From contig OZ024743.1 of assembly GCA_964016885.1 (NCBI GenBank), positions 311,116,001 through 311,180,000 on the forward strand: DNA of 64,000 bases, read 5' to 3'. The DNA comes from Eledone cirrhosa. Taxonomy: Eukaryota. The translations under genes were made by a program, and so were the position numbers. Below the pieces are notes generated by a model. The model was given only the letters and a program-made list of their open reading frames with translations. It was not told where the DNA came from and did no database searches. Positions 57,357-61,200 of this stretch are shown in pieces (position 1 is the stretch's first letter; each line of letters begins with the position of its first letter).

Positions 57357-59390
57357 TAAGTATGTATGTATACGTACATACATATATGTATACAGACGTA
57401 CAGTAGCATGTATATATATACATACAGGCACACATATATATGCACGTATCAGTTTACCGAACATTTATTATAATGCTCGGTTTGTTCGTTTGTAAACAAA
57501 CAAACAGCCTGAGTTACGCCGTACATTGTTTAGGCAACCACGTCACCTTTTTGTTCAACACTGACACAGGAACGATGTACTAGTTTCAAGCTTATTAGCT
57601 ATCTTCAGCACCGTATACCTTTCTGCCAGATGGTTAAACGTCCGAAAGTATATACTTTCCTTATGAAAATTAACGGCTGAGCAGCCTAATTTGCATATCG
57701 AGTGAGTTCAGTCGGCCAGGCGCACCGAGAACGATAAATGGAATAGAATGAAACGAAATTTCATTTCGCACTCTTGGTACGGCTGTTACTTAAATATAAG
57801 TATGTACACGTACATACATATATTTATACAGACGTACAGTGGTATCTATATATATATACATACAGCACACATATATATATATGTACGTATGGAATCACCG
57901 AACATTTATTATAATGCTCGGTGTGTTTGTAAACAAACATCCCGTATTAAGCCGTAGTGTCCAGCAACACTGGTTGCTCGTTTGTTCAACACTGACAAAG
58001 AAACGCTGTACTAGTTTCAAGCTTATTAGCTATCCTCAGCAACGTATACCTTCCTGTCAGATTGTTGAACGTATATATTTAACTTATGCATATTAACGGC
58101 TGAGTAGCCCAATTTGCATATCGAGTGGGTTAATCGGCCGGGTGCAAAGAAAACGATACGCGGAAAAAATGAAACGAAATTTCATTTCCCACTCTTAGTA
58201 CGGCTGTTACTTAAATATAAGTATGTACACGTACATACATATATGTATACAGACGTACAGTAGTATGTATATATACATACATGCACACATATATATATGT
58301 ACGTATGGATTCACCAAACTTTTATTATAATGCTCGGTGTGTTTGTAAACAAACATCCCGTATTAAGCCGTAGTGTCCAGCAACCATCGTTGCTCGTTTG
58401 TTCAACACTGACAAAGGAACGCTGTACTAGTTTCAAGCTTATTAGCTATCGTCAGCAACGTATACCTTCCTGTCAGATTGTTGAACGTATATACTTACCT
58501 TATGCATATTAAAGGGTGAGTAGCCCAATTTGCATATCGAGTGGGTTAATCGGCCGGGTGCACCGAAAACGATAAACGGAAAAAATGAAACGAAATTTCA
58601 TTTCCCACTCTTAGTACGGCTGTTACTTAAATATAAGTATGTACACGTATATACATATATGTATACAGACGTACAGTAGTATGTATATATATATACATGC
58701 ACATATATATATATATATGTACGTATGGATTCACCGAACATTTATTATAATGCTCGGTGTGTTTGTAAACAAACATCCCATATTAAGCCGTAGTGTCCAG
58801 CAACCATCGTTGCTCGTCTGTTCAACACTGACAAAGGAACGCTGTACTAGTTTCAAGCTTATTAGCTATCGTCAGCAACGTATACCTTCCTGTCAGATTG
58901 TTGAACGTATATACTTACCTTATGCATATTAACGGCTGAGTAGCCCAATTTGCATATCGAGTGGGTAAATCGGCCGGGTGCACCGAAAACGATAAATGGA
59001 AAAAATGAGACGAAATTTCATTTCCCACTCTTAGTACGGCTGTTACTTAAATATAACTATGTACACGTACATACATATATGTATACAGACGTACAGTAGC
59101 ATGTGTATATATATATATATATATATACATGCACACATATATATATGTACGCCTGTATATATATATATATATACATGCACACATATATATATGTACCTTG
59201 AACAAACGAGCAATGATGGTTGCTGGACACTACGGCTTAATACGGGATGTTTGTTTACAAATACATCGAGCATTATAATAAATGTTCGGTGAATCCATAC
59301 ATACATATATATATGTGTGCATGTATGTATACATATATACATACTACTGTACGTCTGTGTACATATATGTATCTACGTGTATATACTTAT
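57357..59390 (-). mobile_element. Tandem array of ~4.3 retrozyme-like monomers (periods 431, 416, 420 bp) with inverted terminal piece 59197-59390
   Basis: Intact hammerheads at 57572-57614, 58003-58045, 58419-58461, 58839-58881. Confidence 0.88.
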
Positions 59391-60574
59391 ATATATATAT
59401 ATATATATATATATATATGTATGCATGTATGTATATGTATGTATATATGTATATATATATATGTATGTATATGTATATATATATAGAGAGAGAGAGATAT
59501 GTATATATATGTATATATATATTTATGTTTATATATATATATATGTATAGATATATATGTATATATATGTATATATATGTATGTACATATATGTATATAT
59601 ATATGTATATATATATATATATATATATATATATATGTATATATATATATATATATGTATATATATATTTATGTATATATATATGTATATATATATATGT
59701 ATGTATATATATATGTATGTATATATATAATTATGTATATATATATTTATGTATATATATATGTATGTATATGTATGTATATATATGTATATATATATTT
59801 ATGTGTATATATATATATATATATGTATTCATGTGTGTATATGTATGTATGTATATATATGTATGTATATGTATATATATATAAGTATATATATATATGT
59901 ATATATATATATATATATATATATATATATATATATATATATATATATATATATATATATATATATATATATATATATATATATATATGTTTATATATAT
60001 GTATATATATATAAGTATAGATATATATGTATATATATATATATGTGTATATATATATATATATGCATATATATATATATATGCATTGTTATACTTGGGG
60101 AGGGTCATATTTGTGTAATATTGCAAGAATTAATAACAGAACACACTCACTGTTTGTTTGTTTTTTCGCTTTTCGCTTCTGTGTCTTTCATATCGGTAAC
60201 CTAATTTACTCGGTCCTCAATGTTGCCATTGACTGACCGATGGTCAAAAATAATACAGATACAATATGGACACAAACACATATATATAGTTTATCATAAA
60301 TCTTTCGTTACACATCTGCAACATCGTCAGTGGTGCTATTATTTTCTCCCGTTGTATTGTATGTCTACGCCATTTTTATTCAGTCTGTCTATATATTTAT
60401 TTATTTATTTGTTTGTTTGTTTATTTTATTTTATCTTCTTTGCGCATGCGTTTGCGTGTGTGTATAGTGTTTTGTTTGATGTGTGATGTGTGTTCATGGT
60501 TGGGTGACTAGTGTGTGTTTATGTGCTTGTGTATGTATTTATTTATTTATTTATGTATATATAAATATATATGT

Positions 60575-61200
60575 AAATGGAATAGAATGAAAGGAAATTT
60601 CATTTCTCACTCTTAGTACGGCACTTACTTAAATGTAAGTATGTATGTATACGTACATACATATATGTATACAGACGTACAGTAGCATGTATATATATAT
60701 ATACAGGCACACATATATATATGCACGTATCAGTTTACCGAACATTTATTATAATGCTCAGTTTTCTCGTTTTTAAACAAACAAACAGCCTGAATTACGC
60801 CGTACAGTGTTTAGGCAACCACGTCACCTTTTTGTTCAACACTGACACAGGAACGATGTACTAGTTTCAAGCTTATTAGCTATCGTCAGCACCGTATACC
60901 TTTCTGCCAGATGGGTGAACGTCCGAAAGTATATACTTTCCATATTAAAATTAACGGCTGAGCAGCCTAATTTGCATATCGAGTGAGTTCAGTCGGCCAG
61001 GCCCACCGAAAACAATAAATGGAATAGAATGAAACAAAATTTCATTTCTCACTCTTAGTACGGCACTTACTTAAATGTAAGTATGTATATATACGTACAT
61101 ACATATATGTATACAGACGTACAGTAGCATGTATATATATACATACAGGCACACATATATATATGCACGTATCAGTTTACCGAACATTTATTATAATGCT
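60575..61200 (-). mobile_element. Retrozyme-like repeat, ~1.4 monomers; hammerhead 60853-60895
   Basis: Reverse complement acggtg-CTGACGA-tagctaataagctt-GAAA-ctag-TA-catcgt. Confidence 0.85.

Follow-up and report, generated by a model that had tools for sequence, protein, structure and literature searches.

A putative octopod non-LTR retrozyme with a canonical-type hammerhead motif and an insertion-site record of probable Penelope-like copying

On the evidence of its sequence, the repeat analysed here (family A) is a non-LTR retrozyme with a predicted type I hammerhead motif of the canonical type. It is a high-copy, protein-free repeat of an octopod. Its ribozyme strand is likely transcribed, with a Penelope-like reverse transcriptase-endonuclease as the likely agent that inserts the copies into (TA)n tracts. 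In the proposed mechanism, units of ~420 nt, each with a type I hammerhead motif, would be transcribed on the ribozyme strand and the transcript would acquire A-to-I edits before copying. The ribozyme would cut multimeric transcripts, with dimer pairing of helix III assisting. Some monomers would religate to circles, other templates would stay linear multimers, and a Penelope-like enzyme would paste copies of the RNA into (TA)n tracts.

The retrozyme class has already been catalogued; family A adds genomic evidence on a mechanism that so far is largely a proposal. In the accounts of PMC7229834 and 10.64898/2026.07.22.740005, mobilisation of animal retrozymes was proposed rather than shown. Family A offers young insertions by the thousand, in which start sites are defined and editing marks can serve as template barcodes. 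Two proteins that are candidate helpers, each with a long open frame, are encoded in the same genome. The identity of the helper, two-site initiation and the choice between circular and linear template become directly testable.

Hammerhead motifs and insertions in the window

The window (the whole stretch of 64,000 nt that was analysed) contains eight hammerhead motifs, all located where the original prediction had placed them; their strand is now added. Three lie on the plus strand (104-146, 45693-45735 and 46128-46170). The five motifs within 57357-61200 are all on the minus strand: 57572..57614 (predicted cut after 57578, GUA), 58003..58045 (after 58009), 58419..58461 (after 58425), 58839..58881 (after 58845) and 60853..60895 (after 60859). 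Motif spacings of 416-435 nt agree with the predicted unit length of ~420-435 bp, and the G.U/U.G swap in stem I and the palindromic ACTAGT were both as described. The full motif pattern that had been ascribed to all eight copies is present in five. The remaining three are damaged: the core of 46128 is broken (TTGATGA), in 45693 stem III is not palindromic, and stem II is damaged in both 45693 and 104. A loose core pattern matched 11 times in the window (1.33 expected), a number reached by 0 of 100 shuffles. Seven of these matches belong to family A, one to a diverged relative (24460) and one (1337) to a Penelope-like element, in its terminal repeat. Two motifs without a helix I, at 14748 and 60303, were set aside.

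What had been read as one array at 57357-61200 proved to be two insertions, 57361-59395 and 60574-61201. Monomer positions are numbered from the predicted cut, and family A has two fixed 3' termini, proximal and distal, ~56 nt apart. The first insertion is composed of a minus-strand main arm with four ribozymes and an inverted plus-strand arm. The main arm (57361..59149) holds ~4.2 units of the ~420-nt monomer, and its 3' end is the proximal terminus (monomer ~211), joined to (TA)n. Inside it, units of a younger subfamily are joined to a copy of an older one; the join lies between monomer positions 224 and 240 and keeps the phase. The second arm (59198..59395) is 5'-truncated, covers monomer 20-217 and also runs from the proximal terminus into (TA)n. 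The insertion is therefore atypical in having the proximal terminus at both ends, and its subfamily join falls within the tail interval. The separate insertion (60574..61201, minus strand) comprises monomer 90-420 plus 1-272, with one hammerhead and the distal terminus. Two further family A insertions lie on the plus strand. One (6..366) carries the damaged motif 104-146 as its single hammerhead; the other (45634..46436), of another subfamily, carries two damaged hammerheads and has a distal terminus joined to (TA)n.

The ribozyme motif is of the canonical type

The family A monomer (416-435 nt, GC 36.7%) contains no credible ORF, in line with the predicted non-coding nature of the repeat. It is palindrome-rich and folds strongly (z -7.2); in the lowest-energy monomer fold the core is mispaired. 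In the hammerhead, helix I has 6 bp and runs on into a long stem that carries a UAU bulge (58400-58480 for the motif at 58419). Helix II has three firm pairs and a mismatch and is closed by U.U, and helix III has 2 bp within the palindrome ACUAGU. The G10.1-C11.1 pair is absent, being replaced by U.U in family A, by C.A in one A subfamily and by A.A in the sister families B and C described below.

Canonical metazoan type I hammerheads possess a helix I of 6 bp, a helix II of ~4 bp, a helix III of 1-2 bp and a palindromic loop, and the minimal hammerhead of Penelope-like elements has a long helix II, a short helix I and an extra base 5' of helix II (PMC4209133). By these definitions the motif is not the 'minimal' type I form it had been taken for. 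Its extended 6-bp helix I and short palindromic helix III are those of the canonical metazoan form, and neither the long helix II nor the short helix I nor the extra base was found in family A. The Rfam check suggested beforehand gave no hammerhead match in the family A stretch: a search with 281 nt at E up to 10 returned only a snoRNA chance match, and no hammerhead was among the 150 of 278 window matches listed. The original assignment to a type I hammerhead under structural constraint is supported by stem I pairing in 62 copies and by covariation between families (see below). Cleavage by the family A ribozyme probably takes place in multimeric transcripts, where dimers paired through the palindromic helix III would assist it.

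Copy number, sister families and covariation

The exact core pattern of family A matched 13,093 times in the 3.0-Gb genome, on many contigs, and its reversed control 0 times. A hairpin downstream of the cut site (58315..58336, minus strand), repeated in each unit, has 15,688 exact matches genome-wide, and a related hairpin occurs in families B and C. Contigs of four runs (kind unrecorded) carry the same subfamily variants; a few contigs from two other organisms (1 and 13) were excluded from the evidence on range. At 58240-58700, contigs of run X5 (kind unrecorded) were richer in older-subfamily alleles than those of X1.

Two diverged sister families, B and C, with 643 exact matches combined, were found by way of the motif at 24460 in the window. 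The window itself holds a family B copy with different stem sequences (approximate limits 24240..24620, minus strand; core 24460-24484) and a family B fragment (18692-18834, plus strand). In both sister families the core and the letters of loop II and of the bulge are unchanged, and helices I and II differ on both strands of the stem. As helix III, family B has ACAUGU and family C a true 3-bp hairpin; with such a hairpin, family C may cut as a monomer. Cut triplets across the three families are GUA, GUU and GUC. An alignment of 22 hand-chosen rows, representing three families and a few subfamilies rather than 22 independent events, had 94.2% paired cells, compared to 79.2% after shuffling and 23-40% after sliding. 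Across families A, B and C, 6 of 11 stem pairs differ on both sides.

Unrelated hammerhead-like motifs were noticed in flanks (L153:2029, L156:2803, L159:3884 and 7758, L151:713), which suggests further ribozyme-bearing families.

Individual copies decay, source lineages are probably constrained

An unbiased sample was obtained by picking 96 copies by the flank hairpin alone, 62 of which span the ribozyme. One helix I pair was U.G in 48 copies, G.U in 7, A-U in 6 and unpaired in 1, and the core was intact with NUH in 52 of 62. Rare changes were as frequent in the core (16/682, 2.35%) as in the flanks (101/3844, 2.6%, and 108/5170, 2.1%), and individual copies therefore decay neutrally. Most genomic copies are dead on arrival. 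A per-copy conservation of the core above the flanks, as given by a biased, core-selected estimate, was rejected by this sample. Subfamily-level sites number 0/11 in the core and 24/160 in the flanks, too few for significance alone. Thus, of the conservation proposed for the core, the per-copy part fails, an outcome that the original prediction had listed as counting against it, and a constraint between subfamilies and families stands. An invariant core with covarying stems in three families implies selection for catalysis in source lineages.

The variability claimed for core position N7 holds in the window, where all four bases occur; in the ribozyme-blind sample only C (55/62) and T (7/62) were seen. 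N7 is weak evidence, because C>T at this position falls within CpG, and the four-base variation within the window is mostly decay.

A conserved octamer upstream of the core

A candidate internal promoter element, the octamer ATGCAAAT, lies 81 nt upstream of the core (58528..58535, minus strand) and recurs at 57689, 58112, 58948 and 60970. In families B and C it is found at a similar distance, within 130 nt in 18 of 30 B/C loci. Family C units (among L071-L100) have several octamer copies each. Newt satellite 2 has an octamer upstream of its ribozyme and an snRNA-type promoter, a parallel to the octamer seen here. We regard an internal promoter function of the octamer block as a tentative reading, at somewhat below even chances. 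The octamer falls within a predicted hairpin and is mutated in 8 of 9 places in a young 11-segment array; it may be a structural element rather than a promoter.

Two-ended insertions with fixed 3' termini

Among 162 arms, 126 have 3' ends at ~217 or ~273 that run into (TA)n, and 5' ends are scattered. One ribozyme was present in 53 of 104 segments, none in 35 and two or more in 16. Tandem arrays, the form named in the original prediction, are thus outnumbered: most loci are dispersed short insertions with one ribozyme. In a sample of 223 insertions (several searches pooled, a few duplicates kept), 105 were two-armed, 73 of them with both ends canonical. Of these 73, 68 combined one proximal with one distal end (p about 3e-15). 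Since family A ends within (TA)n, target-site duplications would be hidden.

Penelope-like insertions are defined by arms that are inverted and truncated at the 5' side, together with a tail at one of the ends (PMC8557442). The tail has the length of the stretch between the two internal sites at which reverse transcription starts (PMC11167929). The pairing of one terminus of each kind in two-armed family A insertions agrees with the tail and double initiation described in PMC11167929 and with arm inversion as in PMC8557442. In all likelihood the enzyme starts at two internal RNA sites and extends both cut target strands. Spread by borrowed retrotransposition had been predicted; fixed 3' ends, the two-ended footprint and an A>G skew support this, with RNA of the ribozyme strand as the probable template.

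A very young head-to-head array was observed at L231:1745-5900, with near-identical units and 2 plus 7 ribozymes. Its arms meet at an internal palindrome, and the octamer is mutated in most units. At separate loci (L063/L064, L067/L068, L234, L235, L249, L257, L258) snap-back junctions were seen, in which one arm has its start at the cut site and doubles back along the extended arm of helix I.

Editing-like marks of the probable RNA template

Rare variants common to all overlapping segments of one insertion should derive from the template. The 109 insertions analysed each had at least 60 positions with twofold coverage. Among their 45 shared rare variants, read on the ribozyme strand, 17 were A>G and 1 was T>C, compared to 57 A>G and 54 T>C among 778 unshared ones (shared vs unshared, Fisher p 5e-4). 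The 17 include one segmental duplicate; counted by insertion the ratio is 8 vs 1 (p 0.039). The spectrum of the whole sample was strand-symmetric, without A>G bias (A>G 116/16,706 vs T>C 107/17,487), and the window's own copies had no cluster of A>G marks. A double mark in L222 occurs three times genome-wide, two of these being L222's own arms. The doublet A27G+A28G was found 10 times in 9 insertions. In ten doublet segments from 8 insertions there are 20 additional A>G marks and 1 T>C. Their sites recur, which may be due to hot spots or to descent from an edited copy that gave rise to a small lineage.

A-to-I editing is heavy in coleoids. We consider it highly probable that the A>G marks represent A-to-I editing of a ribozyme-strand RNA template. 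Such editing would be the simplest cause. The A>G skew is the best evidence for transcription and its strand. Family A also suggests a route by which A-to-I edits of cephalopod RNA can enter the genome.

Possible circular and linear templates

Genome-wide, 5' junctions are not in excess at the cut site (63 vs 67 and 35 at control positions); an apparent threefold pile-up in the first 100 rows was removed by matched genome-wide counts. Copying therefore reads through this site, on a religated circle or an uncut multimer. According to the strongest alternative, the element and the Penelope-type copying are the same, but every template is a linear multimer that has escaped cleavage and circles play no part. 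The ribozyme would then work poorly or not at all in vivo, and long arrays would arise later by DNA duplication. Reverse transcription that passes the cut site without pile-up agrees with this alternative, and so do several loci. In L318, marks are confined to the 3'-most unit of each arm, which speaks against a monomer circle at this locus. L101 has grown by dimer-period duplication, and mixed-subfamily arrays exist, the window's included. In addition, only 1 of 9 Xenopus dimers was cleaved in vitro in the experiments reported in 10.64898/2026.07.22.740005.

Against linear templates alone stands L362, where six A>G marks, one of them in the core, are repeated in successive units as a circle predicts. 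One mark in this locus is unshared, and no other rare variant is shared between its units. A>G marks are likewise repeated in successive units of L229, L282 and L324. Early tandem duplication or independent hot-spot editing of each unit could mimic such repetition. A core that stays invariant while stems covary across three families also argues against an idle ribozyme. Exclusively linear templates are therefore unlikely in our judgement, if still the alternative to be taken most seriously. Within-array identity was discarded as a test for circles: neighbours are mostly 1-6% and up to 19% apart, and age suffices to explain this except in mixed-subfamily cases.

Taken together, both template kinds probably occur. 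We lean slightly towards a mixture of religated monomer circles, round which the enzyme passes more than once, and uncleaved linear multimers. A more speculative reading, to which we give rather less than even weight, takes the insertions as a fossil record of the full cycle: self-cut, religated and ADAR-edited circles would be copied by a two-site Penelope-like enzyme running round on both target strands, the marks would be heritable, present in every unit and seed sub-lineages, and the three families would each keep their own octamer promoter inside the circle.

Candidate helpers and relation to known elements

Two abundant Penelope-like families, both represented in the window, have the two-ended, (TA)n-joined footprint of family A and are its candidate helpers. 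The first is found at 1180-4056 (minus strand) as an element with reverse transcriptase and GIY-YIG domains, a 595-aa frame, a minimal hammerhead (1337-1361) and two (TA)n-joined ends. The ends of this minimal-hammerhead family are ~42 nt apart, and a first look yielded 23,565 candidates genome-wide. The second is a young Neptune-like element (20270-22650), a two-armed insertion in which no convincing hammerhead core was detected; its relatives have 784-aa open frames, near-identical endonuclease domains and ends ~40 nt apart. Only a Penelope-type protein was confirmed by the atlas search. Family A shares only 6-12 terminal bases with the two families, and blastn gave no match of family A to them. 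The Neptune-like element is one possible partner, its first end resembling the distal end of family A, but the minimal-hammerhead family fits that end in exact register.

With EN+ Penelope-like elements family A has in common two 3' termini and a tail, an inverted 5'-truncated arm, (TA)n targets, partial tandems and a hammerhead in the repeat (PMC8557442, PMC11167929, PMC4209133). In contrast to them it has no ORF, and its ribozyme is canonical-type, not minimal (PMC4209133). Its tail is ~56 nt long, compared to the 30-40 bp reported for Penelope-like elements, and it lacks extended homology to the two autonomous families examined. Family A could nevertheless consist of detached pseudo-LTRs of an unsampled autonomous Penelope-like family, left by 5'-truncated insertions. 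Its footprint equals that of autonomous elements, of which two families were examined, and Xenopus retrozymes are related to pseudo-LTRs (10.64898/2026.07.22.740005). However, another unit or a junction lies upstream of each unit in the inspected insertions, and tblastn of one Penelope-like protein against loci L001-L100 matched only L054. Perfect multimers with up to 7 ribozymes per arm, and the canonical-type ribozyme next to the minimal type of the window's autonomous element, likewise speak against detached pseudo-LTRs, which we hold to be improbable. A DNA-level satellite or MITE-like repeat with an incidental likeness to hammerheads would suit the blank Rfam result, the neutral decay of copies and a palindrome-rich monomer that folds strongly anyway, but is scarcely credible, as DNA amplification does not yield between-family covariation, fixed 3' with ragged 5' ends or a strand-specific A>G skew.

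The preferred reading thus remains that of a retrozyme moved by a Penelope-like enzyme. Metazoan non-LTR retrozymes are described from coral, mussel and axolotl, with Penelope-like helpers and circular templates proposed (PMC7229834); vertebrate retrozymes have been tied to pseudo-LTRs in a study that added a phylogeny and called the mechanism open (10.64898/2026.07.22.740005). Family A resembles the former in its type I hammerhead per unit, a length of 150-450 bp, a GC content under 50% and its non-coding nature, and the axolotl motif HHR_Amex2 in the U.U at the base of helix II and the 2-bp helix III (PMC7229834). It differs in consisting mostly of dispersed short insertions. For the retrozymes of PMC7229834 both RNA and cleavage were shown; for family A they are predicted from genomic sequence. 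The termini, inverted arms and editing marks of family A are read from insertion sites and appear to go beyond the accounts in PMC7229834 and 10.64898/2026.07.22.740005. Newt satellite 2 (PMC2114352, PMC6765202) is similar as a dispersed tandem repeat with a dimer-type hammerhead; it is an amphibian repeat with a 330-bp unit for which transcription was shown, compared to a conserved octamer only in family A. Octopus, squid and cephalopod have 0 mentions in the main text of PMC7229834. In the literature searched, neither a cephalopod retrozyme family nor an edited retrozyme template was found; supplements, Dfam or Repbase may list family A.

Host and neighbouring features of the window

The cephalopod host assumed in the original prediction is borne out by an exon at 7547-7756 (minus strand). 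Its best named matches, among 5 matches from 17 candidates, were Octopus bimaculoides (89%), Argonauta (77%) and O. sinensis (74%), so that the host is an octopod. The exon belongs to a gene of the host that is HExxH peptidase-like and conserved among octopods. A LINE-type reverse transcriptase fragment (61441-62790, plus strand) adjoins the insertion at 60574-61201. Fragments of a third Penelope-like element lie at 25827-27522 (plus strand); they had no Pfam match and are presumably Hydra-like, judging by their motifs. A long perfect inverted repeat is located at 52968-53178, where Rfam scores are identical on both strands.
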